Assembly: GCA_964550175.1 (NCBI GenBank)
Contig: CAZJXP010000001.1
Span: forward strand, 248,294 to 312,293
Reading direction: 5' to 3'
DNA from: an uncultured Methanosarcinales archaeon
GTDB taxonomy: Archaea; Nanobdellota; Nanobdellia; Woesearchaeales; ARS49
Length of the DNA: 64,000 nucleotides
The position numbers and the translations under genes are program-made. The notes under the pieces are model-generated. The model searched no databases. It was given only the letters and a program-made list of their open reading frames with translations, and was not told the DNA's origin. This document shows positions 1 to 61,604 of the stretch, piece after piece. Within the stretch, counting starts at the first letter, position 1, and each line of letters starts with the position of its first letter.

Positions 1-251
1 ACGCGATACGCATAGCTGCGAACGTTCCTGAAAAACAACAGATAGCCCTGCCGGACATGAACGGGGATGAAATCCGAGGCATGCTCTTCGCGTCATTGAT
101 CAGCGAATACTTCGCCACGACGCAGCCCATCCAGGCAATCAACCGCGGCGAACTCGGCGTCGAGCCGACGTTCATCATGCTCTGGACCGTCAAGAACATC
201 CCCGAAAACATGCTGAAATACCTCATTACCACGGAGGACCCTGATGCTTGA
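1..251 (+). CDS. 3' end of a gene that starts upstream of the window (ORF open to position 1); hypothetical protein
   Basis: Frame of ORF 57..251 stays open back to nt 3 with no stop. It overlaps the next gene by 8 nt, operon-like. Confidence 0.4.
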   Translation, partial: AIRIAANVPEKQQIALPDMNGDEIRGMLFASLISEYFATTQPIQAINRGELGVEPTFIMLWTVKNIPENMLKYLITTEDPDA

Positions 252-525
252 GCAATTCAAATTCTGGAAGCACGCGCCTGAGCAGTCTCCTGGACTGGAG
301 CCGTACGAGCCGCAAGGGATGCCCGGCATGCAGCCAATGGAGCCCGATCCTTCGTTAACTCAGAATAACTCGTTCCAGCAGATGGCGCAATTGACGCCCA
401 AGAGCGACAAGGATTTGGAGCTCGTGAATGCGAAACTGGACGTGATTAAGGCTCAGCTGGATAACATCATGCAGCGCTTGGATAAGATGGAACGGCAAGA
501 GTCGAAAGAGAAAGTCCGATGGTGA
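244..525 (+). CDS. small coiled-coil protein, hypothetical
   Basis: 93-aa ORF. The C-terminal half has heptad-like K/E/L-rich sequence (LELVNAKLDVIKAQLDNIMQRLDKMERQE). Overlaps the lspA start by 7 nt. Confidence 0.5.
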   Translation: MLEQFKFWKHAPEQSPGLEPYEPQGMPGMQPMEPDPSLTQNNSFQQMAQLTPKSDKDLELVNAKLDVIKAQLDNIMQRLDKMERQESKEKVRW

Positions 526-965
526 GAAAGTACTGGTTCTGGGTCATTGCGATTATCGTTGTCATGCTGGATCAGCTGACGAAAGCGATTGTCGTCACGA
601 AAATCCCGTTCAATACTTCGGTCGAAGTCCTTGGTTCTGTTCTTTCGTTCACGTCGGTGCACAACACCGGCGCGGGATTCGGGATACTGCAAGGGCAGAA
701 CTCATTGTTCATTTTGGTTGCGTTGGTCGCGATAATAGTCATTGTTTGCACCTTGCGGAAGACTTTAGAGGACCACCACACGACAATCTTTGTTGCTTTG
801 ATACTCGGTGGAGCTATCGGGAATTTGATAGATAGAATTCTTTACGGGTTTGTCGTTGATTTCATTGATTTTCACATCTGGCCCGCGTTCAACGTCGCTG
901 ACTCCGCTTTGTGTATTGGAGTTATTGGATTGATTTGGCTGTCGCTTATTGAGAAGAAGAAGTAA
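519..965 (+). CDS. lspA: lipoprotein signal peptidase (signal peptidase II)
   Basis: 148 aa with 4 TM segments. Conserved SPase II boxes VHNTGAGFG and FNVADSALCIGV. Confidence 0.85.
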   Translation: MVRKYWFWVIAIIVVMLDQLTKAIVVTKIPFNTSVEVLGSVLSFTSVHNTGAGFGILQGQNSLFILVALVAIIVIVCTLRKTLEDHHTTIFVALILGGAIGNLIDRILYGFVVDFIDFHIWPAFNVADSALCIGVIGLIWLSLIEKKK

Positions 966-976
966 TTTTGCTAGCA

Positions 977-1071
977 CGTTTCTTTTTACCGGCACGTTTT
1001 GTTTCGTCGTTACGTTAAGCAATTTATTTACAATAAAACTAACACTACGACCAATATCGCTGGTAAAAATG
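977..1071. repeat. MITE-like interspersed repeat copy (TIR ctttttaccggcacg ... cgctggtaaaaatg)
   Basis: Inverted motif at 977-995 and direct motif CGACCAATATCGCTGGTAAAAATG at 1048-1071. Homologous to copies at 2361, 10643, 41491, 51273 and 63224. Confidence 0.6.
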
Positions 1072-1422: not shown

Positions 1423-1851
1423 TTACTTTCCGCGTCGGCGCGACTTCTTCGCACGCTTCGAAGCCCTCTTCGGCACAGGCATGATGTTCTCGAGCTGCAT
1501 CGGCGGCATCTCGCTGTAGGCCTCCAACGCGGACTTGTGCGACTTCAGGCTTGAGACCATCAATCCAACAACGTTCCACGCGAGAATCAACAAGTACGGA
1601 AGGAATCCCTCGCGCGACGTCATATAGATCATCGTGAGGTTCGCGATGCTCGCGGCGAAGAACAAGATGGACAACGGCCAGCTCCAGGATGCGCTGAGCC
1701 AGCCGCCGATGACGGCGAGCATCAGAACAAATACCAAAGTGAGCGTGACGCCAAGCTCAAGCAACTGATGCACGCCGAGCGTCTGCTGCAAGAACAGCGT
1801 GCCGAGTATGCTGAGCACACCCAAGATAACCAAAAATCCAGTACGAGTCAT
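1423..1851 (-). CDS. hypothetical integral membrane protein
   Basis: 142 aa with 4 predicted TM helices and a basic C-terminal tail (KRASKRAKKSRRRGK). Confidence 0.55.
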   Translation of the reverse strand: MTRTGFLVILGVLSILGTLFLQQTLGVHQLLELGVTLTLVFVLMLAVIGGWLSASWSWPLSILFFAASIANLTMIYMTSREGFLPYLLILAWNVVGLMVSSLKSHKSALEAYSEMPPMQLENIMPVPKRASKRAKKSRRRGK

Positions 1852-1918: not shown

Positions 1919-2281
1919 TCAGAATTCGTTGACGTTTTCCAATGCCTTCAGTAGGCCCTTCTTTCTGAGAACATCCGCCTGGTGCGGTCGGTACTTGAAC
2001 ACGACGTCGCCTTTCTCATGGCCGCCCAATTCCCACGGCTCGATGAGCAAAATATCATTTTCTCGCACCCACAAGGTGCGCTTCAAGCGGCCCGGGATCC
2101 TGCAGATTCTTGTTAAACCATCAAGGCACTTGACTCTCAAGTGCGAGCCGCCCAATCTTTGCTCGCAGAGGCCGATAACCTGGTTGTTGCGCGGCATCGG
2201 CGTGCGACGGATTTCGTCGGACAGCTGCTGCTCCTTCGCTTCCCGAGTTTCTCGGCTATTCATGCTCTTGTCTTTCTGCAT
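1919..2281 (-). CDS. eif1a: translation initiation factor aIF-1A (eIF-1A homolog)
   Basis: The core EQRLGGSHLRVKCLDGLTRICRIPGRLKRTLWVRENDILLIEPWE matches the archaeal aIF-1A OB-fold consensus. Confidence 0.9.
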   Translation of the reverse strand: MQKDKSMNSRETREAKEQQLSDEIRRTPMPRNNQVIGLCEQRLGGSHLRVKCLDGLTRICRIPGRLKRTLWVRENDILLIEPWELGGHEKGDVVFKYRPHQADVLRKKGLLKALENVNEF

Positions 2282-6830: not shown

Positions 6831-7124
6831 GTGAAAGGAAAAACAACGCCGTTATTGCGGGATTGCCCTGAAAAACTTCAGTTCAAGACCGCGCACGGCC
6901 AGGTGCTACGGAACTACGTGGACCTGATTGACGGACTGAAACGAATGGAGGATTCGACGTTTCGGCACCACGTGAACGAAGGAAGGAATGACTTCCGGAA
7001 CTGGGTGCTGCACGTGTATTCGGATGAGAAGCTGGCGAAAGACTTCGAGCACAATCCGACTCGACTCGGAATGGCGCAGAATACTTCACGTCGATTGAAG
7101 AATCTCGCTATGGAGCATGGATGA
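6831..7124 (+). CDS. hypothetical protein, paralog 1 of a three-gene tandem family
   Basis: GTG start 5 nt after the GH57 stop, with RBS aggtga. Shares the motif L..Y.DLIDGL..M.D.TF..HVN.GRNDF..W with the next two genes. Confidence 0.6.
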   Translation: MKGKTTPLLRDCPEKLQFKTAHGQVLRNYVDLIDGLKRMEDSTFRHHVNEGRNDFRNWVLHVYSDEKLAKDFEHNPTRLGMAQNTSRRLKNLAMEHG

Positions 7125-7133
7125 TGGTTTTTG

Positions 7134-7164
7134 ACGTTGCTCTCCCCGGCAGATTTTGTAGAGT
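7134..7164. repeat. partial interspersed-repeat copy (GACGTTGCTCTCCCCGGCAGATTTTGTAGAG)
   Basis: Matches the 5' block of the repeats at 2361 and 41491. Confidence 0.5.
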
Positions 7165-7296
7165 CGTTACGCAAATAGTTAACAACGACTCAAAATCTGC
7201 AAGGACGAACCAACGACGCGACAGCAAACGTGCGGGAACAGCAACGCAACAAGCTTTAAAAACAGCAAAAATAATGACTCAGCAAAGAGGTGTGGA

Positions 7297-7596
7297 ATGA
7301 AGGCACAAGCGACTCCGAAGACAACCGTCCTAGGCAGCGCTCCCGAAGGAAAGGCCTTTGTTCTTCATGATGGACGAAAGTTAAGGACGCTCTACGAACT
7401 CATTGATGAATTGGAGACAATGAACGATGATACGTTCAAGTCATTTGTTCACCAAGGCAAGAACGATTTTGCTTCTTGGATTGAAGGCGTGTTCCAAGAG
7501 AAAACATTAGCTGACGAGCTGCGCAAAACTCCCTCTCGTACTGACCACCAGAAAATCATACTCAAACATCTTGTTCGATTATTGAGGAAACCATGA
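7297..7596 (+). CDS. hypothetical protein, paralog 2 (shared TF..HV..GKNDF..WI domain)
   Basis: 99 aa. RBS gaggtg before the ATG. Conserved L.TLYELIDELETMNDDTFKSFVHQGKNDFASWI. Confidence 0.6.
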   Translation: MKAQATPKTTVLGSAPEGKAFVLHDGRKLRTLYELIDELETMNDDTFKSFVHQGKNDFASWIEGVFQEKTLADELRKTPSRTDHQKIILKHLVRLLRKP

Positions 7597-8246
7597 GCCA
7601 CAAATCGTTACGTGACGTAAACGACCCCTTCTTCGTGAAGGACGGAACGGCGCTAAAGAGCCTTTACGATTTAGAACGCGAACTGCGCAACATGAGCGCG
7701 GAACAGTTCTCGCACCACGTGAATTCGGCGAAGAACGACTTCTACAGCTGGATCCACCACACCATCAACGATCACGACTTGTCATTGAAGCTTTCGAAGA
7801 TAAATAATCAAAAGAAGATGGCGGACATCGTCGAGAAGCACATACTGTCGTTGGAGCAGGCGCAGACTACTAAGAAAGCCGCCGTGCAGAAAAAAACAAT
7901 CTCGAGCTTAAGGCGGATTGCGTCTAAGCCCGTCGCAAAGGTCGAGCTGGATTTGGCGCCGCTGAAGCACGAGCGCAGATACGAATCATTGCTTAATCCC
8001 GCGCCCGTCCCGATGTCGGAACTGCCGAGCGTCGACTCTGTCGAAGACAGGCTACGGTCGAAATTAGCCGCGCTGCCGAACACGACCGTGACGATTACGG
8101 AGCCGCAAGTTGAAGCCGCTCAAAACATAAGTGCGCCTGAGACCGTCGAGGAACAGTCGAACCTGATGCGGCACTTAGTGCATTACTCGTTAGGACTGAT
8201 GGCGGGAATACTGGCAGGTTTGGTTTTGGCGAAGTTCTTTATCTGA
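7593..8246 (+). CDS. hypothetical protein, paralog 3 with C-terminal TM anchor
   Basis: ATGA overlap with paralog 2. The N-terminal 70 aa share the family domain (LKSLYDLERELRNMSAEQFSHHVNSAKNDFYSWI). C-terminal TM (LGLMAGILAGLVLAKFFI). Confidence 0.6.
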   Translation: MSHKSLRDVNDPFFVKDGTALKSLYDLERELRNMSAEQFSHHVNSAKNDFYSWIHHTINDHDLSLKLSKINNQKKMADIVEKHILSLEQAQTTKKAAVQKKTISSLRRIASKPVAKVELDLAPLKHERRYESLLNPAPVPMSELPSVDSVEDRLRSKLAALPNTTVTITEPQVEAAQNISAPETVEEQSNLMRHLVHYSLGLMAGILAGLVLAKFFI

Positions 8247-9966: not shown

Positions 9967-12311
9967 CGCTTGTTCGCAAAGACAAATTGGTAGTCCTTGC
10001 CTTCTAACAACGTTATGAGCGCGTTCTCGTACGGGAAGAACGTGTAGGTCGCGGATGGTAATGAATCTAAGTTTATTCTTTCCTCGTTCTGGATTTGGCT
10101 TATTACCGTGGCGTTTGTGGCTTCTAAGAAGTTCAATACTGGCTTTCCTGTGGCTACGAAATCCTTGAACTCCCAACGGTTCGTTCCCTTGTTGACGAAG
10201 AACCTGTACTCCATCATGAACGTGGTTTGGTCCTTGCCGAGAATTGCTTTTACTGTTGGACTGCCGACGTTTTCAACTGTAACACCGGTAAACGCCTTGA
10301 AATTGTCGATGCACTTGATTGTTCTGGCTTTCGTATCCTCTCCTACGTCTAATTCTATTCTTTCTAATGGTAATTGGTTGTCAACCCCTTGGAGGTAGTC
10401 GAAGGCGGTTGTTGGCGTGGTTTGGAACGGGGTTTGCAAGGCGAGATGACCTCCTTGGAGGCCTAATACTTTCAAGGTGTCTTCGCCCGCGAGTTTAAGA
10501 CAGTTGTTGACGTACTCTTGCACGGTTGATTCTGATTTTACTACAATATGGTCTGGGACTGTGATGAAAAGCAATAACATGGCTACGGCTAAGATTACGA
10601 CGCCTAAGAGCATGAAGATGGTTAATTGGCCGCGGGATGAGCGTTTACTTTTTTTACCACTGCTGACCCCGGCAGATTTTGAGTTAGTGGCTCGATTGAG
10701 CTTTGAATGATGGCCTAAACGCGTCCAATCTTGGCGGTAAAAAGTCTTGCCGGGGCGCGACATGGCAACTCCGGCTAATATCACCGCGAACGAAGCGAAC
10801 AGCAACGCGTGAACTGAAGTGAGATGCTTGATTAATTCTGCAATCTTACTGTGTCCTGCGGGGTAGACGGTCAAGACAACCCCATTCCTCTGGTAATCAA
10901 CCGTGTTGTCGTCCACTTTCATGACCGAAGGGCTGTACGCGGTGCGGTAAGACTTGATCCAGGACTGCGTGAGCTTTTCTTTGGTTATCTTGTCGTTGAT
11001 GGTGAGCAAGCGTTCGGTTGACGTTCCATGCTGGATGGCCTCTTCGATGGTTATGTAGTTGCTGACGACCGTCTTGTACGGAGGGGCGTCGTTCAGGATC
11101 AAGACGTCGTTGATGAACGCGTTGTCCTTGTCGAACGTCAGGATGGCTTTCGCGTCCTTGTTGCCCGTTGTGAAGAACGTGACCAATCCTTCCGACTTGC
11201 CGTCCTTCTTTATTTGTGGCTTGTTGAGGTCGACGATTCCCCTGATTTCCAACGCGTGGTTCGGAAGGTCGAAGATCGAGCAGGACTTGCAGGACTTCAC
11301 TTCAGGCGGGAACGCGTCGGAGTCGGACTTTCTCAGGAAGATATCGTGATTGTCCTGCCAGGCACGGATGCTGAAGTCTTTAGTTGCGTCCTTCGCATCA
11401 TAGGTGTACAACGTGACGGGCTCCATATGGATGTGCTGCATCCCGTCAGTTCTTGAGACTTCGACCTTTGCGGAATTGTTAGATTCTACTGTTTCCGTTA
11501 TTCCGTTCTTTTCCAATTCGATTTGGACATCTATTAGGTCTAATACGGTTGTTGTGGTGCTCTTTGAAATGACTAAAGAGGAATCATCTGAGAGAGACTT
11601 GAAATCGTACTGGTTCGTCGAACAGTCCTTGATCTTGAATTCGGAATCCTTATCCGCGTCGATGGTCACGTCGGTTTTAGCCGTAATCTTCGCGTTTTCA
11701 ACATCTTCCATGTAAACGCAGCTCGCCCAGACGGAATCTGCTTTCTTTACGTCAATCGTCTTGTCGCAATAATTGACTTTATCGAGCTTAGTTGCGATAG
11801 TGTCGGTTTCTACGAGAGAATCGGCTGTGTCGGCGGTTAAACAACCATTTTCGTATTTTACATTCTTGCCGTTGGTGATGACTATGGGGCCTTGCTGGAG
11901 GGAACCGACGGAAGCGATTGAGTAGCCGCCGCCTTGGACAGAAACGCCCGTTACATCAGCAGCCTTGCCAGAACCTTTCGGAGTATCCATACTTTTTGCG
12001 TATGTTAAATGACCACTTGCATCAACTTTCCCGCCAACAACATGCGTGAAAACATTACCATCAGCATCCGTAAATTTGTCCGTATCAACATTATAGGATC
12101 CATCAGGATTTTTGGTTGCCGTACCACCTTCATAAGTGGCGCCATTGGCATCTTTAGCCATTGTGTCAGGAGTAATATCTTGTTTCACACCAGCATCGCC
12201 ACCTCCACCCGGACCATCACTTGGAGGAGGAGTTGTTCCATCAGCGATTACTGCGACTGAAAGTAAAAGTAGAACAACAAGTAGTATAGGGATAACACCT
12301 CTTTTACTCAT
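9963..12311 (-). CDS. large secreted surface protein, with signal peptide and internal hydrophobic anchors; an interspersed repeat lies in frame at 10643-10746
   Basis: N-terminal signal MSKRGVIPILLVVLLLLSVAVIADG. A TM segment plus basic tail (LLFASFAVILAGVAMSRPGK) is typical of an archaeal C-terminal anchor. It is followed by repeat-encoded sequence and then a second TM segment. The 782-aa ORF may really be two genes, roughly 10750..12311 and 9963..10640. Confidence 0.55.
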   Translation of the reverse strand: MSKRGVIPILLVVLLLLSVAVIADGTTPPPSDGPGGGGDAGVKQDITPDTMAKDANGATYEGGTATKNPDGSYNVDTDKFTDADGNVFTHVVGGKVDASGHLTYAKSMDTPKGSGKAADVTGVSVQGGGYSIASVGSLQQGPIVITNGKNVKYENGCLTADTADSLVETDTIATKLDKVNYCDKTIDVKKADSVWASCVYMEDVENAKITAKTDVTIDADKDSEFKIKDCSTNQYDFKSLSDDSSLVISKSTTTTVLDLIDVQIELEKNGITETVESNNSAKVEVSRTDGMQHIHMEPVTLYTYDAKDATKDFSIRAWQDNHDIFLRKSDSDAFPPEVKSCKSCSIFDLPNHALEIRGIVDLNKPQIKKDGKSEGLVTFFTTGNKDAKAILTFDKDNAFINDVLILNDAPPYKTVVSNYITIEEAIQHGTSTERLLTINDKITKEKLTQSWIKSYRTAYSPSVMKVDDNTVDYQRNGVVLTVYPAGHSKIAELIKHLTSVHALLFASFAVILAGVAMSRPGKTFYRQDWTRLGHHSKLNRATNSKSAGVSSGKKSKRSSRGQLTIFMLLGVVILAVAMLLLFITVPDHIVVKSESTVQEYVNNCLKLAGEDTLKVLGLQGGHLALQTPFQTTPTTAFDYLQGVDNQLPLERIELDVGEDTKARTIKCIDNFKAFTGVTVENVGSPTVKAILGKDQTTFMMEYRFFVNKGTNRWEFKDFVATGKPVLNFLEATNATVISQIQNEERINLDSLPSATYTFFPYENALITLLEGKDYQFVFANKR
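10643..10746. repeat. complete MITE-like repeat copy located in frame inside ORF 9963..12311
   Basis: TTTACTTTTTTTACCACTGCTGACCCCGGCAGATTTTGAG...CCAATCTTGGCGGTAAAAAGTC, with an internal hairpin GCTCgattGAGC. Confidence 0.6.
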
Positions 12312-12344
12312 AATTAAAGAAACAGACGAGACGTTATTTAAAGC

Positions 12345-13460
12345 TTACTTCTTCTCATACTCAACTTTGGACCATCGTTCTTTCTCAGTTCGTTTATTTT
12401 GTGAGCGCCAAACAAAGGAACCATTGGGTGCTGTGAGGTTCGTACTTGCCCAATATTTACAAATGTCACGCGCCCACGCTTTAACATATTTTGTTTCTTG
12501 AGGGGCACCTGCAAGAACGTCAAGAACCTTTATCTTACCATCATTTTTCTCAGGTGTTTCACCTTTTACGACATCATATTTAGCAACAATGAACAAGGAA
12601 GGTTCAGCAATAGAACCAAACTGTTTCATGACCTCCTTCAGATCATCTTTGACCGCAGTGTTCTCCGCATCATACACTTTAAGCGGCACACCCAAAACCT
12701 TACTCGCATACTTTGCAAGAATGGCAGAACGAATGGATAAAATTGTTGCATTATCTTTTCCATTAAAATCACACATTAATACAAGACTTTTATCATCTTT
12801 CAATTCAGCAATTTCTTTTGCAAATTCTCCTTTCCCGATATAAGACACTTTAGCATCACTAGCAAAATCTTTGTCATCAAAAACTTCTTTCGCGGTTTTG
12901 TATTTTGCTTCAAGTTTTTGGGCTAAATCATCGGTAAAATCATCGATATTCACTTCTTTAACATCTGCTTGTATTTTCGGGTCTTCTGCGTATACTCGTG
13001 GTGTGTTTAGTCCTGAGAATCCGAATGCGGTGGTTGTGAGTATGGCTGCGTAGGCGATGTTGTTACGTGCTTTGTGCCAGAATGATTTCTGTAAAGGCAC
13101 TTGTTCTGCGTTTTGTATTGCGTTGTCGATGCTCATGATGATTCTTGCCTTGTACGTTTCGTACTGTTTTGCCCGCTTTTGCCCTTTTTGGTCGGGCAAT
13201 CCTAATGACAAATGTTCTTTGAATAGTGTGATGTCTTGCCTGAACACGTCTAGCCAAACAACGGCTGTTTCTGCGTGTTTGCGAGCCGTTCCGGTGACGT
13301 TCTGTGTTACCGTGACTGCTGCAGTGCGCAACAGCTCAATCTCCTGCAAAACGGTTTGAGCGTCTTGCAAGGTCATGTTCGCAAACCGCAAATCTCGGCG
13401 GCGCGAACTTAATGTTTTGACTCCGTTGCTGACCGACTTGAGCTGGCGAAACACATCCAT
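12345..13460 (-). CDS. hypothetical membrane-associated protein
   Basis: 371 aa with one TM segment (IAYAAILTTTAFGFSGL) and no recognisable family. Confidence 0.5.
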   Translation of the reverse strand: MDVFRQLKSVSNGVKTLSSRRRDLRFANMTLQDAQTVLQEIELLRTAAVTVTQNVTGTARKHAETAVVWLDVFRQDITLFKEHLSLGLPDQKGQKRAKQYETYKARIIMSIDNAIQNAEQVPLQKSFWHKARNNIAYAAILTTTAFGFSGLNTPRVYAEDPKIQADVKEVNIDDFTDDLAQKLEAKYKTAKEVFDDKDFASDAKVSYIGKGEFAKEIAELKDDKSLVLMCDFNGKDNATILSIRSAILAKYASKVLGVPLKVYDAENTAVKDDLKEVMKQFGSIAEPSLFIVAKYDVVKGETPEKNDGKIKVLDVLAGAPQETKYVKAWARDICKYWASTNLTAPNGSFVWRSQNKRTEKERWSKVEYEKK

Positions 13461-13654
13461 GTCAAGATGGACGTATTACGACTATATAAAACAAATCAGT
13501 ATATAATTGTTATGACTGTTTTCGTCGATGATGGACATGAAAACAGCAGAATTCGCCTTTTTGCCCCTTATAAATGACCTTAAAATCTATATAAAATATA
13601 TAAATTATAAGGACAATTAATATATACTTCCTTTAGCTCTATCTTTACTACTTA
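13461..13654. promoter_or_regulatory. AT-rich divergent promoter region with several TATA-like boxes
   Basis: ctatataaaaca, ttataaatga and atatataaatta lie between divergently oriented genes. Confidence 0.4.
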
Positions 13655-14290
13655 ATGGTGGTGTTGAGGGAAGACAAAATGAGCTTAACGTCCATTGTTC
13701 AAAACACCATACGTAAAACAAGCCCGGTAATCGCCAGACGACTGTGCGACCGATCTCTCGCAAAGGCGCGTTCTTCTGCTAAGGAGTATGTTCGCCATAA
13801 AGATGAATTCCGGCTCTACCTCCAATTCTGTGAACGCGCCCAACCGTCAAGATATGATGACTGGCAAATGAATTACAATATCCGCAAATACCAAGAAACT
13901 GCACAAGACCTTGTCGAACGCACCAACCACAAATATGCCCGCGCAAGAGCGTGGGAAACACGCCAAGAGGTCGCGGAAGAACGCCTCGTCTTTTATACAG
14001 GCACGGCACACGTTCTCGCAAATTGCCCGGTCGAACGCCTCCTCCATTACCGCACGCTCGTTGAAGATGTGCGCAGTATCGCTCCCACTTCAACAGTGCT
14101 CGGCAAAGTAGACGAAAAAATCATTGGAGAAGGCACCTGCGACAAACACGACACGCAAGACCACATTACCATGTTCAAAACAGCAGGCTATGAAAAGGAA
14201 GCAAAAGCGCTCGCGGCGCTCTACGCAGAACAAATCATGCACGACCAACCACAACGCGCATGGGAATTCATGAAACAGACCATGGCTTAA
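13655..14290 (+). CDS. hypothetical protein
   Basis: 211-aa ORF with no recognised motifs. An alternative start is at 13679 (MSLTS). Confidence 0.5.
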   Translation: MVVLREDKMSLTSIVQNTIRKTSPVIARRLCDRSLAKARSSAKEYVRHKDEFRLYLQFCERAQPSRYDDWQMNYNIRKYQETAQDLVERTNHKYARARAWETRQEVAEERLVFYTGTAHVLANCPVERLLHYRTLVEDVRSIAPTSTVLGKVDEKIIGEGTCDKHDTQDHITMFKTAGYEKEAKALAALYAEQIMHDQPQRAWEFMKQTMA

Positions 14291-14337
14291 ATCTGAATAA
14301 CCACCACAATAAAACATAAAATCACGAGAGGATAAAT

Positions 14338-15297
14338 ATGAAAACAAGATTTCCGGGAATCTCAGCATTGGTGAGGTGTAAAGATGAAGGCGATTCGGTA
14401 TACGCAAGTTTATTTTCAATAAAAGATCTTGTTGATGAAGTTGTCTTTGTTGACAATGAATCGGTGGATAATAGCATTGCCGAAGCTGAAAGATTTAAGA
14501 ACGATCATTTCAAAGATAAAAACTTCATTATTCGCCCTTATGCACACAGTGTTGCAGGAGGCAATCATCTTGCGGACATGAATAATTTTGCCTTATCCTT
14601 GACTTCAACCGAGTGGGTTATGAAGTGGGATGTTGACACTATTGCGTACACTGCGGGAGAAAACTCCATCTTAAAGCTCAAAGAACGCGTATTCGCTAAC
14701 GGTTCTCCTGTGGACATTATAAGATACAGTTTTTTTAATCTCTGGGGTGATTATTTCCATTGCCTGCAAGCAAGATTCGGCGATCCTGAATATGGCCCGA
14801 CTGGTTGCGGATTGGAGTTGCAAGGTTGCGAAAAAAGACTGTATCGGTATGATGATGATATTCATTTTGAAATGGAACGTTATGCTGAACACTTTTGGGA
14901 AGCTATGCGAGTACCTCTTACCTATAAAGAAATGCAGTTAAGTATTGTGCCTGGCGTACACTTGCAGACGGTTAAACCTTCAAGCTTGGTCGGTCGTAGA
15001 TTTTTTCTTACGCGCTTTACACCAGGTGAGCGAGAAAAATATGGAAGTTTTACGAAATTTGTGCAACATGAGCTACGAGAAGCAAATTGTCCTTCTCTTG
15101 AGCTTTTCGGCAAAAAACTCATTATTGATGAAGTGAATGTACGTGGTACAAAGTTCAAACAGCCGCATCCTGATACAATGTACCAATTGGGTTTGATGAA
15201 AGAACTCCCATATGAACTCATTTTTGATGAAACTAACGTCTGCGTTGATAGAAAAGAACGAAATGCAGCACACGATTACTTGAGGGATGGAGAATGA
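14338..15297 (+). CDS. glycosyltransferase family 2-like (GT-A fold)
   Basis: N-terminal ISALVRCKDEGDSV...VVFVDNESVDNS fits the GT2 pattern (I..TYNE...VDDGSTD). AT-rich codon usage. Confidence 0.7.
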   Translation: MKTRFPGISALVRCKDEGDSVYASLFSIKDLVDEVVFVDNESVDNSIAEAERFKNDHFKDKNFIIRPYAHSVAGGNHLADMNNFALSLTSTEWVMKWDVDTIAYTAGENSILKLKERVFANGSPVDIIRYSFFNLWGDYFHCLQARFGDPEYGPTGCGLELQGCEKRLYRYDDDIHFEMERYAEHFWEAMRVPLTYKEMQLSIVPGVHLQTVKPSSLVGRRFFLTRFTPGEREKYGSFTKFVQHELREANCPSLELFGKKLIIDEVNVRGTKFKQPHPDTMYQLGLMKELPYELIFDETNVCVDRKERNAAHDYLRDGE

Positions 15298-16388
15298 ACT
15301 TATTATTTTGCCTTCATTCATTTAACATTAATGGAGTATTAAACCAGAATCTTTCATTAGCAAAACACATTCTGAAGAAACTGCCTGATGTGCGCATTAC
15401 GGTCATTGCACCAACAAAGAAAGAGGGGATGCTTGCATATCTCGCATTAGGAATTGATGCGAAAGCGATAAATCCTGCAACCGATAAGGATGGGTTCAAT
15501 ACTTTGGCAAATGGGTCACATGACGCTATTTTATTTGAGTCGTTATTTTCATTAAATTATTATGGTAGTTTATTGGCCGGCAATCAAAAAAAATCTGTAT
15601 TGCACATTCATGAAGAGTTGCCTCTCACCCATAAAAGCGACTTATGGAATGTTGATGCAAAATCAATAGATGATTATTTTTCAGAACTGGTCAATTCTAC
15701 AGTTATATTTTCGGGTCAAAAAAGTCAACTCCATTATTCAAAAAAGCTCTTGGAATACAAGATTCAATCGCATGTTATCAATAATGTGGTTGATGTTGAT
15801 AAGTTTAAAGCAATAAAAAGGAGGGACGATGGCGCATTTAATATTGTTCAAGTAGGGACAATCTATGAGCGCAAAGGAGCAATACAAACATTCGAAGCAT
15901 TCAACATATTATTGAAAAAATATTGCATTGAAAATGCAAACCTCGTCTTCGTAGGGGCACGTAAAGGAAAACCTGCCGAAGAAGATTATGTGCAGCAACT
16001 AGTCAAAAGAACAAAGCTGCTGCACTTGGAAGATCAGGTTAAAATAGAACCGGTAATTACTGAACCAAGCAAATATTACGAAAATGCTTCGGTTGTAACA
16101 CTTCATTCTCAATCAGAATCTTACCCCACAGTATTTCTTGAAGCATGTTATTTGGGAATTCCGTTTGTGGGAAGTGTTGTTGGATGTTCTCAAGAGATGG
16201 AACGCAAATACGGAAACGCACTATTATTTCCCATTGGGGATATTGAAAAACATGCACAATGTTTGCACCAAATTTACGAATCTCAATTTCCTGAAAAGAA
16301 AATGACCCGGGAACAGTTAGAAGTACATTTTGAAAATAATCACGATAAAATGATAACTCGGTTGCTCTTGAAAAATGGAAACTCTTGA
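15294..16388 (+). CDS. glycosyltransferase family 4 (GT-B fold)
   Basis: C-terminal ESYPTVFLEACYLGIPFVGS is the E-x7-E GT4 motif. Confidence 0.75.
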   Translation: MNLLFCLHSFNINGVLNQNLSLAKHILKKLPDVRITVIAPTKKEGMLAYLALGIDAKAINPATDKDGFNTLANGSHDAILFESLFSLNYYGSLLAGNQKKSVLHIHEELPLTHKSDLWNVDAKSIDDYFSELVNSTVIFSGQKSQLHYSKKLLEYKIQSHVINNVVDVDKFKAIKRRDDGAFNIVQVGTIYERKGAIQTFEAFNILLKKYCIENANLVFVGARKGKPAEEDYVQQLVKRTKLLHLEDQVKIEPVITEPSKYYENASVVTLHSQSESYPTVFLEACYLGIPFVGSVVGCSQEMERKYGNALLFPIGDIEKHAQCLHQIYESQFPEKKMTREQLEVHFENNHDKMITRLLLKNGNS

Positions 16389-17658
16389 AGAAAAAATAGA
16401 CTTGCGCATAGAGCAGGAAACAGAATTGGTATTCCAAGCGTATATTACGAATGACGTCATGACCGGCATGGCAAGAGACGAAGTGACTCAATTAGCAAAG
16501 AAGTCGAAGAATAGGGTTCTTGCTGATAGTGGTGTAATGATGCAAATCATGCAAGAAGCAGAAGAAGCATACATAAAATCTTTAGCAAATGTGAACGAAG
16601 AACTCGCTGAAGAATATGTCCGCATTAAAAAAAGTGCTTGTCCGATTGAAGCTAAAAAAACAATATTTTCTGAATGCAAAAAAACATTAGATGATGTCAT
16701 TTTCAAAAGAAAATTCATTGAAGCCAGAATTAGTCTGAATCTTGATCGTGACGCTCAGCACATTAAATCTTCGATTAAACAAGTACTGTTGCGTGATTAT
16801 AGGGACCTCGTGAGTGGTTTAACAAGGAGTTACGCATCGATGAACAGTGATGGTGAAGCAAACAAATTTATTGAGTTTTTACTTGATTTTAGTCAAGACA
16901 GCACGGGTATTTTATACGAACGTGAATTTAGACGAATCCTTGCTGACAAAATGAAACCGGCAGATATTTTGATTTACAAATGCTTGCGGTTCACCCATGA
17001 TGAAGGTCATCTTAATATCTGTCCTCATTTAGACGATTATCGCACTCAGGATATCAATGGAAAGCCAGTTATGTTTAAAGGAGCTTCAGACACGTATCAA
17101 CTCAAAAAAATATTGTATCTTGCCAAGCACCTGAAAAAATATTCCGGAAGTAAACAACCAATTCTGATTGTGGCTGATGGTGATATGTTTAAGTATGGCC
17201 CTGAAAAATATGCCGAGTTCAGCAGCAAAATACACGAGTATTTAGTAGAGATACGAGCTTATTGCCCCGCCTTAGATGTACGTTTAGAAACTGAATATTT
17301 CGACAACCAACAAGAATACAAAGAACTTGAAAAACGGGTTAAAAGTTCAATTCTACAGCACCAAAACGACTATATCGCGCCTGAAGAAACCCAAAGAATT
17401 ATTGAAGATTACGCGTCACGATTCCGTGCTATGCTTAAAGACTGGACGATTGAAAAAAATCAATATTACTCGGTTACGTCTATTTCCCGTAACATCGCTC
17501 AGGGAATGTTTTTATCCTATGAAAAACGTAAGGCAATTGTAGTTGTATTCAATAATCCTGATAGTACTGGCGCAAGATTTAATCTGAAAACGGAAGAGAA
17601 AGTGCCATTTATCGGGTATCCTAAGTTGTCATCCAAAGTGGTGAATAACAATGACTGA
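16375..17658 (+). CDS. hypothetical protein (427 aa) within the AT-rich glycosyltransferase island
   Basis: Long ORF with no family motif recognised by eye. Overlaps both neighbours. Confidence 0.55.
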   Translation: METLEEKIDLRIEQETELVFQAYITNDVMTGMARDEVTQLAKKSKNRVLADSGVMMQIMQEAEEAYIKSLANVNEELAEEYVRIKKSACPIEAKKTIFSECKKTLDDVIFKRKFIEARISLNLDRDAQHIKSSIKQVLLRDYRDLVSGLTRSYASMNSDGEANKFIEFLLDFSQDSTGILYEREFRRILADKMKPADILIYKCLRFTHDEGHLNICPHLDDYRTQDINGKPVMFKGASDTYQLKKILYLAKHLKKYSGSKQPILIVADGDMFKYGPEKYAEFSSKIHEYLVEIRAYCPALDVRLETEYFDNQQEYKELEKRVKSSILQHQNDYIAPEETQRIIEDYASRFRAMLKDWTIEKNQYYSVTSISRNIAQGMFLSYEKRKAIVVVFNNPDSTGARFNLKTEEKVPFIGYPKLSSKVVNNND

Positions 17659-18436
17659 TATTTCGCGTCACCATAATGATGTCAAAATCACGCAGAAGAG
17701 GGTCACTAAAAAGTTTACTGAAGAAAGTGGATTAGAACGAGAACTCGCGGCGGCAACACTCTTGGGTGATCAGATCCCCCTTGCGAGGATAGTGAGAATT
17801 GACCGGGCGAAAAACGCACTTATTTTTGAAAGATTTATGTACGAGTCAGGAATTGACAAGGACCCTTGTTTAAGATTATGTGAAATCGCTCGCATCTTAA
17901 AAAAGCTGCATTCTATTAGTTGTGCCAATAGTAATCTGGAAGATGCGCGTTTCCCGTTGCAAGATTTTGCTGGAACGCTTACAGCTCATGTCAGAAATAA
18001 ATATATTCATGGTCTTGCAAAATCAGGGTATTCCGTCCCCGCTGAGAATCTGCTTGACCTCGGATTAGCATTAACCCCGAAAAAATTTAGTTATGTTCAT
18101 AATGATGCGAAATGCCGACATTGTTTTTTTGATAAAAATAATCAGCTTAAAGGAATAATTGATTTTGAATACTTTGGTCTTTTTGATCCTCTTGTAGATA
18201 TAGGTAGCATTGCCGCCGATGTATTTGAATCTAATCCAAATGAGTTCAAAACGTATACACGCGCCTTTTTTGGTGAATATGGTCTTCAGGAACGGGACAA
18301 ACGTTCCGTCTTGTTTTACATGATTACGAGCAAACTCACTCAAGCGCTCAATATAGATTTGCCTTCGGGTAAAGAAAAAGACGCAAAAAAGGCACTCCAG
18401 TTAGTAAATACTTTCTCTCAAATGCAAAACCTTTAA
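17651..18436 (+). CDS. APH/choline-kinase-like phosphotransferase (small-molecule kinase fold)
   Basis: Catalytic loop VHNDAKCRHCFF and metal-binding IDFEYFG are the Brenner and DFG-like motifs of the APH family. Confidence 0.65.
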   Translation: MTDISRHHNDVKITQKRVTKKFTEESGLERELAAATLLGDQIPLARIVRIDRAKNALIFERFMYESGIDKDPCLRLCEIARILKKLHSISCANSNLEDARFPLQDFAGTLTAHVRNKYIHGLAKSGYSVPAENLLDLGLALTPKKFSYVHNDAKCRHCFFDKNNQLKGIIDFEYFGLFDPLVDIGSIAADVFESNPNEFKTYTRAFFGEYGLQERDKRSVLFYMITSKLTQALNIDLPSGKEKDAKKALQLVNTFSQMQNL

Positions 18437-18457
18437 TATATTCAAATACTTGAAATA

Positions 18458-19871: not shown

Positions 19872-19923
19872 AATTCACCTGTTTATATATAAGCTCGGAT
19901 TTTATAAGGCTGTTGCCTTAGGA

Positions 19924-25073: not shown

Positions 25074-25400
25074 TTACCAGATAGAATCGTCGTAATTCAA
25101 TTCATCATTGATCACGACAACATGAATTCTGTCTGCGCAATGCGCTTCCAACGAATGCGCAAACTCCGTCATCTCATCACGCACGGCCTGCCCATAGACA
25201 TTGATTTGGTTGCGAGCAAGGTCGAAATCCCCGACATGCAAACGAGGAGCTTCCATCCCGAAAAGCGCGCCCAAACAGCCGCATTTACCTTCGCGAGAAA
25301 GATACAACGTGTAACCCGGAGACGTTTTCGGACTGATTTGATATCCCTTGCGTTCGCAGAAATCAATCACTTGCGCGCGATCTAATGACATGAACCTCAC
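25074..25400 (-). CDS. hypothetical protein
   Basis: 108-aa ORF abutting the helicase fragment and overlapping the next gene. Confidence 0.4.
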   Translation of the reverse strand: MRFMSLDRAQVIDFCERKGYQISPKTSPGYTLYLSREGKCGCLGALFGMEAPRLHVGDFDLARNQINVYGQAVRDEMTEFAHSLEAHCADRIHVVVINDELNYDDSIW

Positions 25401-26095
25401 TCCAAATGATACTCGATTAACTCAGTCGTTGTTTTAATTCCGTCGCTGATGATAATGCTCTTGACCAAGCCTGACTCGAAGCCAGGAACCAAAGGAGAGG
25501 CCCAGATGTCCTTGCGCGTTGCCCCATCAAATGAGCTCTTGTGCAACACCCAGAACGTCCCTGCGGGAACGGTCACTTGCTCAAGACCATCTAAAACAGG
25601 CGTCGTTGCCGAGAAGCCCTGGATGGACTCTTCCGCCCAACGGCTGTTTCTGCCGAGCACTTGCGCATCGGAGAACGCGCCCCTGCGCTCGTTCCAGATG
25701 ATGAGATACTTCGTGTCATCGCACCACAGCGTTTGCGTGCGCGACTCGCCGATTCGGGTCGAGTTGCGCTCGATGCCGATGCACGGGTCGGATTTGTAGT
25801 AGGTTGAAATCATGCTGTAAGAACGCACCGCGGGAGAAACTCCCTCTTCGGTCGTCGTGATGCTGTACTTTGCCCATTGGCCTTCGTTCAATTCACGGGT
25901 CAAAAACGTCGCCTTGTCGCCAACGACTGATATGTTGAGTGAATCAAAAGTCGGCTTGTCGATCACAACAGGAGTTTCCGCGGGCGCGTCAGAAACGACC
26001 AGCGTGTCAACCGTAACCGGCGTGAATTCCTCTTTTATGACCGGAGCACACGCTACCAAGAACAGCAAAATAGCGATATATTTCCAAGCCCCCAT
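25397..26095 (-). CDS. predicted lipoprotein (lipobox LVAC)
   Basis: N-terminus MGAWKYIAILLFLVACAP is a signal peptide plus L-V-A-C lipobox. Confidence 0.6.
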   Translation of the reverse strand: MGAWKYIAILLFLVACAPVIKEEFTPVTVDTLVVSDAPAETPVVIDKPTFDSLNISVVGDKATFLTRELNEGQWAKYSITTTEEGVSPAVRSYSMISTYYKSDPCIGIERNSTRIGESRTQTLWCDDTKYLIIWNERRGAFSDAQVLGRNSRWAEESIQGFSATTPVLDGLEQVTVPAGTFWVLHKSSFDGATRKDIWASPLVPGFESGLVKSIIISDGIKTTTELIEYHLE

Positions 26096-29930: not shown

Positions 29931-29997
29931 TGGCTCCAATATAAAGAAAACGCTAACTCTAACGACGAAACAAAACGGGGCGGTAAAAAGTTTACGT

Positions 29998-48945: not shown

Positions 48946-48948
48946 ACA

Positions 48949-50071: not shown

Positions 50072-50140
50072 TTCACGCCCAAACCCCTCGCTTAAAAAAG
50101 TTCCGCTACCTTTATAAACGTCCCGTCGTCAATTCTCACC

Positions 50141-50845
50141 ATGGAAAAGCTGTTTATCCACGCGCGTTCGGACGAGGACGTCACGTTAACTCCTGTAGCT
50201 GTTAAAGCGCTCAAAGGAAAGAAGGTCGGCATCGTGACGAGCATCCAATTGCTGCACGGCATCAAAGTCATCCAAGACCAACTTCCTGGCGCGATTGTTG
50301 CCGGACAAGTCCTGGGTTGCAACTCCTACAACGCGGAGAATATCGCGGCTTCTGTTGATTGTTTCCTCTTTGTCGGTTCGGGCGAGTTCCACCCGATCCA
50401 AGTCGCGATGCGAACGAAGAAGCCAGTGTATATTTTCAACCCCGCGACCAAAGAGTTCGGCACGCTCAAGCAGGAAACCATCGAGTCGTACGAAAAAAGA
50501 AAACAAGGAAGCATTCTGAAATTCTTATCTTCAGATAGAATCGGCGTGATTGTATCAACCAAAGCCGGCCAGAAGAACTTCAAGCGCGCGATGGAACTTG
50601 AAAAACGCACGGATAAACAGTATTTCGTTTTTGTTTCCGATACCTTGAACTTCAACGAGTTCGAGAACTTCCCTTTCATCCAGTGCTGGGTCAACACGGC
50701 TTGCCCTCGCATTGCGGATGAAAAACTCGGCATCGTCAACATCAACGAACTGATGGAAGCGAAAGCAATCACGTTCCCGAAAATCGAAGGCGGCTACGAG
50801 ATTCCTATCTGGATGTCGAAGAAAGGAATGAAGAAATCTGATTAG
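50141..50845 (+). CDS. dph2: diphthamide synthase Dph2-like, N-terminally short (two of three domains)
   Basis: GQVLGCNSYNA, FVGSGEFHP and WVNTACPRI align with archaeal Dph2 residues about 105-335. The domain carrying the first Fe-S Cys is absent. Confidence 0.7.
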   Translation: MEKLFIHARSDEDVTLTPVAVKALKGKKVGIVTSIQLLHGIKVIQDQLPGAIVAGQVLGCNSYNAENIAASVDCFLFVGSGEFHPIQVAMRTKKPVYIFNPATKEFGTLKQETIESYEKRKQGSILKFLSSDRIGVIVSTKAGQKNFKRAMELEKRTDKQYFVFVSDTLNFNEFENFPFIQCWVNTACPRIADEKLGIVNINELMEAKAITFPKIEGGYEIPIWMSKKGMKKSD

Positions 50846-51414
50846 ATAACGTTCGTCGTCATCTTTACGCCCGGAAACAAGTTGTGCTCCTTCGCGAACC
50901 CGGCTTCGACTTCCACGACGTACATCGCGGCCTTGTTCGTCGGATATGTCGCGCAAGGGCTCTTGTCGCACGGCGGCGTGTTTTCCTTGATCTCGTTCAC
51001 GGTGAACGTTTCGTCCAAGAAGATGATGTCCAACGGTATGAGCATGTCTTTCATCCAGAACGTGCGAGGAATGGATTCTTCAAAAACGAACAGCATCCCC
51101 TCGCCGGGTGCGAGCGTCTTGCCCATCAATCCAGCAGATCGTTCATCCGCGTCATCAGCGACCGCAACAAGAACGTTCACGTAGCCCTCGCCGTTGAAGA
51201 ACGTCACCTTCGGGTGCGGAGCGCAGGAGGCCAACAAAAGTAACGCGAATAGTACGAACGCTGTCCTTACACCACTTTTTACCGGCGAATTTTGAGTTGT
51301 CGTAGTAATCGTGTTACTCAAACGTCCAATCGGGGCGGTACAATCCGAATCCAGTGGGTTCGGATGTACAAGAGGACTTCGAGTCCTCTTTGTAAAAAGT
51401 TTACTCACGTCCAC
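50842..51414 (-). CDS. DUF192 (COG1430) family protein with lipobox (LLASCAP); 5' portion coincides with an interspersed repeat, true start uncertain
   Basis: The mature part (GEGYVNVLVAVADDADERSAGLMG...) is DUF192-like. The first 45 codons are encoded by repeat copy 51273-51404 and overlap the sppA 3' end. Confidence 0.55.
   Translation of the reverse strand: MDVSKLFTKRTRSPLVHPNPLDSDCTAPIGRLSNTITTTTQNSPVKSGVRTAFVLFALLLLASCAPHPKVTFFNGEGYVNVLVAVADDADERSAGLMGKTLAPGEGMLFVFEESIPRTFWMKDMLIPLDIIFLDETFTVNEIKENTPPCDKSPCATYPTNKAAMYVVEVEAGFAKEHNLFPGVKMTTNVI
51273..51404. repeat. interspersed repeat copy (inverted CACTTTTTACCGGCG ... GGGGCGGTACAA) followed by hairpin AAGAGGACttcgaGTCCTCTT
   Basis: Motifs and an 8-bp perfect stem seen directly. 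Confidence 0.5.
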
Positions 51415-52343
51415 ACCTGCGGCTTATCTAACTTCGTGAATTGTTGCCCGATGCCACTCCCGATCGAAAACCCGAAATCGTTGGTTACGCCGAAAAGTTC
51501 ATCCATGAACGTCAACGGCGTGCTGAACTCGACGATTTCTGCAGTGATGTTCAACGATTCCTCGAGCGAGGCAATCGCGTCCTCTTCCGTGCCTATCTTG
51601 TCAATCAACCCGAGCTCTAATGCTTCGGAGCCAAGATAGACCCAGCCGGTCGCGATTTTACGGACTTTGTCTTCGGGCAAGCCGCGATTCTCGGCAACGG
51701 CCTTAATGAAGACATCATGAATCTTATCCAACTGCCCCTGGAACAAATCTTCCTCCTTCCGAGTCAAATGCTTGAACGGGCTGCCAGTCTCCTTGAATTC
51801 CCCTGCGGTTAACGATTGGTAGGTCGCGTTGTAGCGCTCCAACGTTCCCGCGAACTCGAGGTAGCTCGCCAACACCCCGATGCTGCCGACCATGCTCAGC
51901 CGGCTCGCGAATATTTTGTCCGTCGCGGAAGCCGCCCAGTACGCGCCTGACGCCCCCATTTCCCTAATCACTGCGACGGATGGCTTAATCATGCCGTTTA
52001 TTTCCGACGCGATCTCTTCCGTCGCGACTGGAGTTCCGCCGGGCGAATTAATCCTGAAAATGACTGCCTTGATGTGGTCATCCTCCTCGGCCTCATGAAT
52101 CCACTGCACGACATCCCCGCTTGCGACGCCGGTTTCGCCGAACGCGGCAGATCCCGTAGTTATCACGCCGTCGATCGGAATGATCGCTATGTTGCCTTCG
52201 TTGAAGGTTGTCGGGGCGCTAAATGACGCGATGATGATGAAGAACAGAAACAAAAAGAACAGCACCGACAGAATGCCCGAGATGATTCCTATGACTGCGA
52301 GGATTGTTTTCAGGACAGAACGCTCTTCCACCGCTTTTTTCAT
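51405..52343 (-). CDS. sppA: signal peptide peptidase SppA (peptidase S49)
   Basis: N-terminal TM, and GSIGVLASY / GASGAYWAAS with catalytic Ser/Lys regions typical of S49. Confidence 0.85.
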   Translation of the reverse strand: MKKAVEERSVLKTILAVIGIISGILSVLFFLFLFFIIIASFSAPTTFNEGNIAIIPIDGVITTGSAAFGETGVASGDVVQWIHEAEEDDHIKAVIFRINSPGGTPVATEEIASEINGMIKPSVAVIREMGASGAYWAASATDKIFASRLSMVGSIGVLASYLEFAGTLERYNATYQSLTAGEFKETGSPFKHLTRKEEDLFQGQLDKIHDVFIKAVAENRGLPEDKVRKIATGWVYLGSEALELGLIDKIGTEEDAIASLEESLNITAEIVEFSTPLTFMDELFGVTNDFGFSIGSGIGQQFTKLDKPQVWT

Positions 52344-60704: not shown

Positions 60705-61604
60705 CTAGACTTCAGCATCATCGCAGCTGATTCTTCCGCCATCGAGATCGTAGCTCATCTTAAGCCAGCTCAACCGCAGGCTCTTCGCCAGTTCGCAGAA
60801 ATCTTCAGTTTCGAGCTCGTATTCGACGCCGAAAACCGCTTTCTCGTTTTCTATAAACGGCAAAACTCTCTCGCATTCATCGTACTCGAAACATTGCTCG
60901 TTGACGGCGAAATCGAAGTGGTCGACTAACTCAGGAATCTGGTCCAAATCATTTTTCAGGCCGATGGACAATTTCCGTTTGTGCGCCTCATCGGCCAGCC
61001 ATTTGTTGTACGCCAACTGGGCTTGCGCCGTCAAGGAAAAACCGTTATCGTTCAGATACCCGTCAACATTGTCAGGTTCTACTCCGTCGCAGCCTTTTTC
61101 AACGGCCAAATCAAATCTTTTTCGCATAATAGGCGCGAGCAAGTCTATTCTTGACACATCAAGCCATTTCTCATCTTCCCAGCCTTCCAACGTATTGCCC
61201 AAAACCTCTTGTGGAAACTCAGCCTCGTCGGCTCTCCAGTCTTCGTAGCTTCCGGCGCTGAAGTAGCAGATGACCTTGATTTCTTTGCGCTGCAATTCTT
61301 TGATATCCTCTTTCGACGCATCAAACAAGTCGATATCATACATATCGACCGGATAATTCAAGTTAAGATCTCCCGCAAGTTGCCATTGCCAAGACGTTTT
61401 CGGAGCAGGTTTCCACCACGTAGTTTCGAGCGGGACAAAAGAGGACGTAACTTGTTCTACCACTGGCGTCGCATTTTGTTCTGACGTGCTGTTGACCACA
61501 ATCTCAGGAGCGGGCGGTGCTGCGATGAGCGGTTCTGCTTTTTCTTGAACGCAGCCGCTGACAAGAAGAAGCCCGATTAATACTTGCCAGAGTTTCATTT
61601 CCAA
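60705..61604 (-). CDS. glycoside hydrolase family 114-like (endo-alpha-1,4-polygalactosaminidase family) lipoprotein
   Basis: VICYFSAGSYEDWR and DGVEPDNVDGY TIM-barrel motifs. Lipobox LLLVSGC. Confidence 0.65.
   Translation of the reverse strand: MEMKLWQVLIGLLLVSGCVQEKAEPLIAAPPAPEIVVNSTSEQNATPVVEQVTSSFVPLETTWWKPAPKTSWQWQLAGDLNLNYPVDMYDIDLFDASKEDIKELQRKEIKVICYFSAGSYEDWRADEAEFPQEVLGNTLEGWEDEKWLDVSRIDLLAPIMRKRFDLAVEKGCDGVEPDNVDGYLNDNGFSLTAQAQLAYNKWLADEAHKRKLSIGLKNDLDQIPELVDHFDFAVNEQCFEYDECERVLPFIENEKAVFGVEYELETEDFCELAKSLRLSWLKMSYDLDGGRISCDDAEV

Follow-up and report, generated by a model that had tools for sequence, protein, structure and literature searches.

The observations made on the stretch of DNA analysed here, a window of 64 kb, are very probably best explained as a whole by a Woesearchaeota (DPANN) archaeon in which a functional LspA, a signal peptidase of the bacterial family, matures lipoproteins. 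According to a recent study, no archaeal homolog of Lgt or Lsp is known, and the signal peptidase was named as the next target (Hong et al., PMC12462473). The first archaeal lipidation components, AliA and AliB (arCOG02177/arCOG02178), were reported in 2024-25 by the same authors (Hong et al., PMC12462473), and the members of arCOG02177 were labelled DUF63 proteins (Supplementary Data 4, Hong et al.). Lipobox proteins are common in archaea, both in Euryarchaeota and in DPANN (PMC12462473), so that only LspA is unusual here. DPANN archaea as such were predicted to be rich in lipoproteins (PMC12462473). For Woesearchaeota, Sec lipoproteins were predicted to make up 26-51% of the secreted proteins (Supplementary Data 1, 10.1101/2024.08.27.609747). 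The numbers of AliA and AliB were both zero in every Woesearchaeota and Pacearchaeota genome analysed, and also in AR15, AR20 and a 'Nanoarchaeota archaeon' (Supplementary Data 3, 10.1101/2024.08.27.609747). The lineage that carries LspA is thus rich in lipoproteins and devoid of AliA/AliB, and it appears to use a different toolkit. In the literature searched, no paper was found that ties LspA, signal peptidase II or lipoproteins to DPANN or Woesearchaeota. Public annotation pipelines already name these proteins 'signal peptidase II'; the novelty lies in the recognition and placement of an archaeal LspA, and not in a new protein family or a new kind of system.

The gene on which this explanation centres lies close to one end of the window:

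519..965, + strand: lspA, signal peptidase II (peptidase A8), 148 aa, ATG at 519, stop at 965

The original prediction had called its product a canonical signal peptidase II with an NTGAGFG and an FNVAD box. Both boxes are there, and the assignment was confirmed by matches to Pfam, NCBIfam and PDB entries. The Pfam family Peptidase_A8 (PF01252) was matched with an E-value of 9.7e-39 and 133.2 bits (cut-off 25) over profile positions 1-141 of 142, and the NCBIfam equivalog TIGR00077 (lspA) was matched with 120.5 bits (cut-off 73.95). The LspA sequences of the PDB entries 6RYO (2.9e-24), 9EMZ and 5DIR were also matched. Four transmembrane (TM) segments were located at residues 9-27, 61-79, 90-108 and 126-144, as read from a Kyte-Doolittle hydropathy scan and not from a structure.

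For LspMrs of S. aureus, 14 highly conserved residues have been described, with Asp118 and Asp136 as the catalytic dyad (Olatunji et al., PMC6952399). These residues were mapped onto the window protein using a 154-sequence alignment, and all 14 were found, i.e., D18, K22, N49, G51, G98, N102, D105, R106, V112, D114, F124, N125, A127, and D128. Each conserved residue that makes contact with substrate or inhibitor is thus retained. The NTGAGFG box contains the conserved Asn and Gly, and the catalytic dyad corresponds to D114 (in VVDF) and D128 (in FNVAD). The catalytic Asp residues, the loss of which had been set beforehand as a possible refutation, are therefore intact on a proper alignment, and both are invariant across 92 archaeal-clade LspA sequences. 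These 92 sequences, as well as a 40-sequence alignment (A3), show next to no variation at any of the 14 positions. The near-invariance of the functional residues indicates that archaeal-clade LspA is under purifying selection. Judged from its sequence, the window LspA is most likely the lipoprotein signal peptidase of its lineage.

The assignment of the DNA to an archaeon, which had been part of the original prediction, was upheld by several features. The window encodes the translation factor aIF-1A in the vicinity of lspA and, as further archaeal markers, the diphthamide synthase Dph2 and a chromatin protein of the Sso10a family. On an independently assembled Logan contig, a Ribosomal_S8e gene is located just upstream of lspA, and the nearest LspA homologs carry the names Candidatus Woesearchaeota or Nanoarchaeota. 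An identical LspA protein was located on an NCBI contig of 969,452 bp. Scans of the window for tRNAs and Rfam families gave no matches. The genes next to lspA are the following:

1..251, + strand: 3' part of the gene for a 2-TM protein of no known family (full length 234 aa, complete on Logan contig L001 at 1521-2225)
244..525, + strand: 93-aa coiled-coil protein ending in ...VRW, no significant family
1423..1851, - strand: small 4-TM protein with a basic C-terminal tail, convergent with lspA, no Pfam/NCBIfam match
1919..2281, - strand: aIF-1A, archaeal translation factor and synteny anchor (PF01176, E=1e-15)

The gene for the 2-TM protein opens a conserved gene string (2TM / coiled-coil / lspA), and its orthologs hold the same place on three contigs with LspA homologs (L082, L084, L086). 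The stop codon of the coiled-coil gene overlaps the start of lspA by 7 nt, and the same 7-nt overlap was found in L082 and L084, which suggests that the two genes are co-translated. On the other side, a gene of the 4-TM type directly follows lspA in nine of nine archaeal loci inspected at that position. Its place is thus conserved, yet the protein has an identity of 19-55% across lineages and zero invariant polar residues, and it was rejected as a candidate for a partner enzyme. The gene for aIF-1A neighbours lspA in L082, L084, L086, L088, L090, L094, L099, and L146.

Synteny was compared for six homolog contigs, with LspA identities of 64%, 59%, 57%, 50%, 49%, and 46%. The order S8e…lspA–4TM (convergent)–aIF-1A–SppA was found on five of the six (L082, L084, L086, L088, L090), often followed by DUF192, and on the sixth, lspA was surrounded by other archaeal-type genes. 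At three further metagenome loci, aIF-1A was located immediately after lspA. At 110 bacterial loci, by contrast, lspA comes directly after a large conserved gene, and in part of them it is itself followed by lgt. In the classic operon of E. coli, the gene before lspA is ileS. Neither the large upstream gene nor lgt was present in any of the archaeal lspA loci examined.

The conservation of this archaeal neighbourhood down to an LspA identity of 46% argues that lspA is old and vertically inherited and does not represent contamination. The earlier proposal of an 'acquired or lineage-specific' system is thereby supported and can be sharpened, because the presence of the same neighbourhood at 46-50% LspA identity speaks against a recent pickup. 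In a neighbour-joining tree, all archaeal LspA sequences that were verified by label or context fell into one clade apart from the labelled bacteria. The bootstrap value for the monophyly of archaeal LspA was weak (55/200), as is expected for about 150 alignable columns, and the case for a single ancient transfer is therefore carried mainly by the shared synteny. Several bacterial phyla were at nearly the same mean distance from the archaeal clade, and thus no donor is named; a donor phylum had been considered and was dropped in view of these distances and the bootstrap value. In the scenario that we favour, lspA would have passed from bacteria to an ancestor of Woesearchaeota/Nanoarchaeota long ago and would have descended vertically since then.

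Five ORFs of the window encode predicted substrates with a lipobox:

25397..26095, - strand: predicted lipoprotein, no Pfam family; MGAWKYIAILLFLVA, lipobox Cys is C16
26345..26932, - strand: predicted lipoprotein, no Pfam family; MKKLLYLVMLSVLVMA, lipobox Cys is C17
34732..35259, + strand: predicted lipoprotein, cyclophilin (PPIase); MKRLLILILLLTA, lipobox Cys is C14 (PF00160, E=1e-48)
50842..51321, - strand: predicted lipoprotein, DUF192; ...FVLFALLLLAS/C (PF02643, E=1.5e-28)
60705..61598, - strand: predicted lipoprotein, GH114 glycoside hydrolase; MKLWQVLIGLLLVSG, lipobox Cys is C16 (PF03537, E=4e-86)

All five had been named in the original prediction and translate as it stated, and its domain assignments of the cyclophilin, DUF192, and GH114 proteins agreed with Pfam. 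An independent scan led to the same set. The window was searched in six frames and from every possible start for N-termini with a charged n-region followed by an h-region that is hydrophobic and uncharged and by a lipobox of relaxed form ([LVIAMFTG][ASTVILMG][GAS]C), and exactly these five ORFs and zero others were found, compared to a mean of 0.1 ORFs per window in a control with 40 mononucleotide-shuffled windows. A strict lipobox ([LVI][ASTVI][GAS]C) recovered three of the five ORFs together with one hydrophilic false positive. For the DUF192 protein, a TTG at 51321 is a likelier start codon than the GTG at 51414 that opens the longest ORF, and the gene probably begins at the former.

The conservation of the lipobox Cys in orthologs, the lack of which had been set as the other possible refutation, was also analysed, and the residue was found to be kept. 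All three DUF192 orthologs from syntenic relatives contain a lipobox (LLAG/C in L082, ILAG/C in L084, LLSA/C in L086), and the only cyclophilin ortholog that was found (L086, 18345-18878) retains VLAG/C. A twin-arginine motif is absent from all five lipobox proteins, which argues for export by Sec. The Sec-only reading for the window agrees with the all-Sec prediction for Woesearchaeota (Supplementary Data 1, 10.1101/2024.08.27.609747).

The window also encodes a peptidase that might act after LspA:

51405..52343, - strand: SppA signal peptide peptidase (S49), N-terminally membrane anchored (PF01343, E=1e-41)

The window SppA matched TIGR00706 with 184.7 bits (cut-off 155). Its gene is located directly upstream of the gene for the DUF192 lipoprotein, and in relatives, sppA is found 1-2 kb from lspA. 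The enzyme probably clears the released signal peptides.

Taken together, the following order of events can be proposed. The lipobox preproteins would be exported by Sec, and a transferase would put a thioether-linked lipid on the lipobox Cys. LspA would then cut the peptide bond just before the lipidated Cys, such that the mature protein would be anchored by its N-terminal Cys, and the freed signal peptide would be degraded by the membrane-bound SppA encoded nearby. Sequence data give good support to the LspA step, whereas we infer the other steps of the pathway.

The enzyme for the lipidation step, on which LspA normally depends, was searched for with several approaches. A profile was built from 13 Lgt sequences of bacterial loci, and the sequence of E. 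coli Lgt was confirmed against PDB entry 5AZB. With filters off and all six-frame ORFs as targets, this profile yielded zero matches in the window and likewise zero matches in the archaeal loci. No Lgt was found by profile in about 190 kb flanking lspA in 15 other archaeal loci, and none appeared either when the profile was run with default filters (E<=1e-5) on all archaeal DNA examined, about 255 kb with the window included. The same profile did detect lgt beside lspA at 12 loci from bacterial genomes and at about 30 from metagenomes. Pfam scans of some 55 window proteins, among them all those with multiple TM segments, gave no match to LGT (PF01790), to the families of Lnt (CN_hydrolase, LNT_N), an enzyme that is optional in many bacteria, or to DUF63. 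DUF63 was also absent from the Pfam lists of the archaeal loci L082-L090. A scan of metagenomes with the archaeal LspA alignment retrieved mostly bacterial loci and six archaeal-like loci, and lgt was present in zero of these six. A protein search that started from Lgt of the bacteria with the LspA closest to the archaeal clade gave Omnitrophica as the only names among the best 120 matches and thus carries no information on archaea. The statement that no lgt is present in the window thus held for the profile without filters and for the Pfam scans of all multi-TM proteins. The more general statement of a 'bacterial-type' pathway is borne out only for the peptidase step, which is represented by LspA; for the lipidation step, no enzyme was found in the window.

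The window encodes only one 7-TM protein (48265-48945), the 23 homologs of which all belong to this clade, and in close relatives its gene is always located close to lspA. It was considered as a hidden Lgt or AliA and was rejected. A comparison with the 13-sequence Lgt alignment using hhalign gave a probability of 0.1%, and for an AF2 model (pLDDT 79), the PDB yielded matches to generic 7-helix bundles alone (E>=0.06, Foldseek) and none to Lgt. Because neither Lgt nor AliA/AliB was found, the transferase should be either an Lgt encoded elsewhere in the genome of roughly 0.97 Mb or an unrecognised enzyme. The former may apply, as the window represents 64 kb of the roughly 970 kb.

Several other explanations for the presence of lspA were weighed against a functional archaeal lipoprotein signal peptidase. 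The LspA family is overwhelmingly bacterial, and Candidatus Binatia bacterium is the label of one close homolog (P0006), as might be expected if lspA had come in by contamination with bacterial DNA, by mis-assembly or by a very recent transfer and had no role in the archaeon. This explanation is effectively refuted by the gene context. Archaeal genes are present on both sides of lspA, in the window as well as in the independent Logan assembly, the same neighbourhood recurs on eight or more further archaeal contigs, which stem from different samples and sources, and the start codon of lspA overlaps an upstream gene of the archaeal clade. In addition, the 'Binatia' MAG also has the clade-restricted 7TM family (P0143), which points to an archaeal contig that was mis-binned there.

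The two remaining alternatives accept an archaeal lspA and differ in the role of its product. LspA might cleave lipobox signal peptides without prior lipidation, such that the proteins would be released or held otherwise and a transferase would not be needed. In lgt mutants of some Gram-positive bacteria, Lsp-dependent processing persists. The lack of Lgt and AliA in the window, the lack of Lgt near lspA in other archaea, and the published tables with zero AliA/AliB in the lineage would all be in line with cleavage of this kind. However, LspA has kept every residue around the pocket for lipid and substrate, and the strict retention of the +1 Cys in orthologs fits lipid attachment, whereas a signal for cleavage alone needs no Cys. 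Moreover, the absence of a transferase refers to the small visible part of the genome. We therefore regard cleavage without lipidation as very unlikely. It is very unlikely that LspA has been repurposed, e.g., for another class of substrates or as an antibiotic-insensitive or decoy copy, and that the lipoproteins are matured by another archaeal peptidase. Some bacteria contain extra LspA paralogs with roles in resistance. A repurposed LspA would also be compatible with the finding that haloarchaea mature their lipoproteins without any LspA (PMC12462473). Yet lspA is a single-copy gene with conserved housekeeping neighbours, its product has retained the complete set of catalytic and substrate-binding residues, and in relatives, sppA and the gene for a conserved lipoprotein are located nearby. 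Furthermore, the lineage is devoid of AliA/AliB, the expected partner system of such another archaeal peptidase. Given the conservation of the pocket and of the +1 Cys, both alternatives are less likely than lipoprotein maturation by a functional LspA.

For lipoprotein maturation by LspA, a more far-reaching version can be put forward tentatively, as a possibility that we do not favour at present. Woesearchaeota and their relatives might follow a route distinct from both the bacterial and the AliA/AliB pathway, in which an LspA captured long ago would take over after a lipid transferase from a family not recognised so far, and the lipids used might be archaeal or scavenged from a host. If this were true, LspA would be the first lipoprotein signal peptidase to be identified in archaea, the AliA/AliB gap in the lineage would be explained, and the transferase still missing would represent a new enzyme.

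The lspA locus bears on a stated open question, namely, which enzymes build archaeal lipoproteins. The window LspA is a candidate for an archaeal lipoprotein signal peptidase that can be cloned, and it permits asking whether such an enzyme is active on a cysteine modified with an ether lipid. The search for the missing transferase is now sharply defined. In addition, LspA adds to the bacterial envelope functions that have been stably adopted by DPANN archaea.

The archaeal LspA can be compared with three known systems. With the bacterial enzymes LspMrs (6RYO) and LspPae of P. aeruginosa (5DIR) it shares the family, the four-TM layout, the Asp dyad, and the 14 conserved residues. The length of 148 aa is typical for compact LspAs, and the predicted substrates have classic lipoboxes. 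The differences concern the host, which is a bacterium in the known cases, the gene order, with a large gene before lspA in bacteria versus S8e…lspA…aIF-1A…SppA in archaea, and the partner, as Lgt is known for the bacterial enzymes, whereas none was found for the window LspA in the archaeal DNA searched. The lspA-lgt pairs of Candidatus Omnitrophota and other bacteria encode an LspA that is about as similar to those of the archaeal clade as bacterial LspA sequences get. At one such bacterial lspA-lgt locus (L091), LspA is 47% identical to the window LspA, and the adjacent lgt matches a protein named Candidatus Omnitrophica bacterium. In loci of this type, lspA is flanked by the large upstream gene and by lgt, whereas the archaeal loci lack both. 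AliA/AliB of Haloferax volcanii differ from LspA in that they act in the lipidation step and are unrelated to it, and none is encoded in the window; however, they also serve archaeal Sec or Tat preproteins with the same lipobox and an essential +1 Cys (PMC12462473).

The immediate surroundings of lspA (519-965, plus strand; signal peptidase II) are occupied by a second small membrane protein gene and by one of three copies of a short repeated motif:

1423-1851, minus strand: small 4-TM protein, convergent with lspA and directly following it
982-1007, plus strand: copy of the 26-nt motif
29965-29990, minus strand: copy of the 26-nt motif
63228-63253, plus strand: copy of the 26-nt motif

A convergent small 4-TM gene was found immediately 3' of lspA in nine out of nine archaeal loci inspected at that position, i.e. 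the window, the relatives' contigs L082, L084, L086, L088, and L090, and the further lspA loci L002, L005, and L051. The sequence of the protein is poorly conserved across these loci, and in remoter lineages a C-terminal Cys/His motif (PGKYVASK..YH.PKC.WA…C) replaces the basic tail. The intergenic motif, CTTTTTACCGCCCCGTTTTGTTTCGT, occurs three times in the window with at most two mismatches, while no copies would be expected by chance. At the copy located 17 nt past the stop codon of lspA, the similarity extends to 49 nt. The motif may act as terminator or promoter, or represent a small repeat element.

The larger neighborhood of lspA differs between the window and its close relatives, and the difference involves a further pair of genes:

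48265-48945, plus strand: 7-TM protein of 226 aa
48949-49224, plus strand: Sso10a/HTH_45-type winged-helix protein, paired with the 7-TM protein

In L082, L084, and L086, the gene order SppA–DUF192–Dph2–…–HTH_45–7TM lies no more than 1-2 kb past lspA–4TM–aIF-1A, whereas in the window this block (48265-52343) is 46 kb distant and in reversed orientation. One inversion of about 50 kb (about 2,400-52,400) would suffice to recover the arrangement of the three relatives. Just 23 homologs of the 7-TM protein were detectable (29-64% identity), all from the same Woesearchaeota clade, and the winged-helix protein accompanies it in every case. The AF2 model (pLDDT 79) is a generic seven-helix bundle. 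A remoter look-alike is encoded in the Nanoarchaeota locus L005 (1869-2564).

Elsewhere in the window, the GC content drops to 0.40-0.41 at about 12,000-20,000, compared to 0.50-0.56 outside this island. Its genes encode GT2 and GT1 glycosyltransferases, an APH-type kinase, an S51 peptidase, and several proteins without a family, and it is probably a surface-glycosylation cassette that was gained horizontally. Genes of glycogen and starch metabolism are plentiful for a small genome (4443-6826, 21131-23688, 54989-56737), and comprise a GT4/GT5-type glycosyltransferase with a starch synthase domain, a eukaryote-type Glycogen_syn (PF05693, E=1e-145), a GH57 enzyme, an amylo-1,6-glucosidase-type GDE_C protein, and a GalT-like transferase. 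Additional features of the window are:

6831-8246: three small DUF5752-like paralogs in tandem
29998-31758 and 36974-40045, both minus strand: two ribonucleotide reductase genes, encoding proteins of 586 aa (ATP-cone) and 1023 aa (class II, TSCPD domain)

The barrel domain of the 586-aa reductase was matched in two separate stretches, and the protein may therefore be interrupted or truncated.

Two homologs, P0006 of LspA and P0143 of the 7-TM protein, are labelled 'Candidatus Binatia bacterium'. The former (65% identity) groups in the Woesearchaeota LspA clade and the latter belongs to the clade-restricted 7-TM family; probably, archaeal contigs were mis-binned into that bacterial MAG. Five metagenomic loci (L091, L095, L097, L114, L147) encode bacterial LspAs about equidistant from the archaeal clade, with the lipidation gene lgt immediately 3' of lspA. 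The large gene directly preceding lspA in other bacterial loci is also present in three of them (L091, L097, L147). For L091, the lgt product has a match labelled Candidatus Omnitrophica bacterium. Groundwater habitats of the types in which DPANN archaea occur have also yielded reports of Omnitrophota, a group of ultra-small bacteria.
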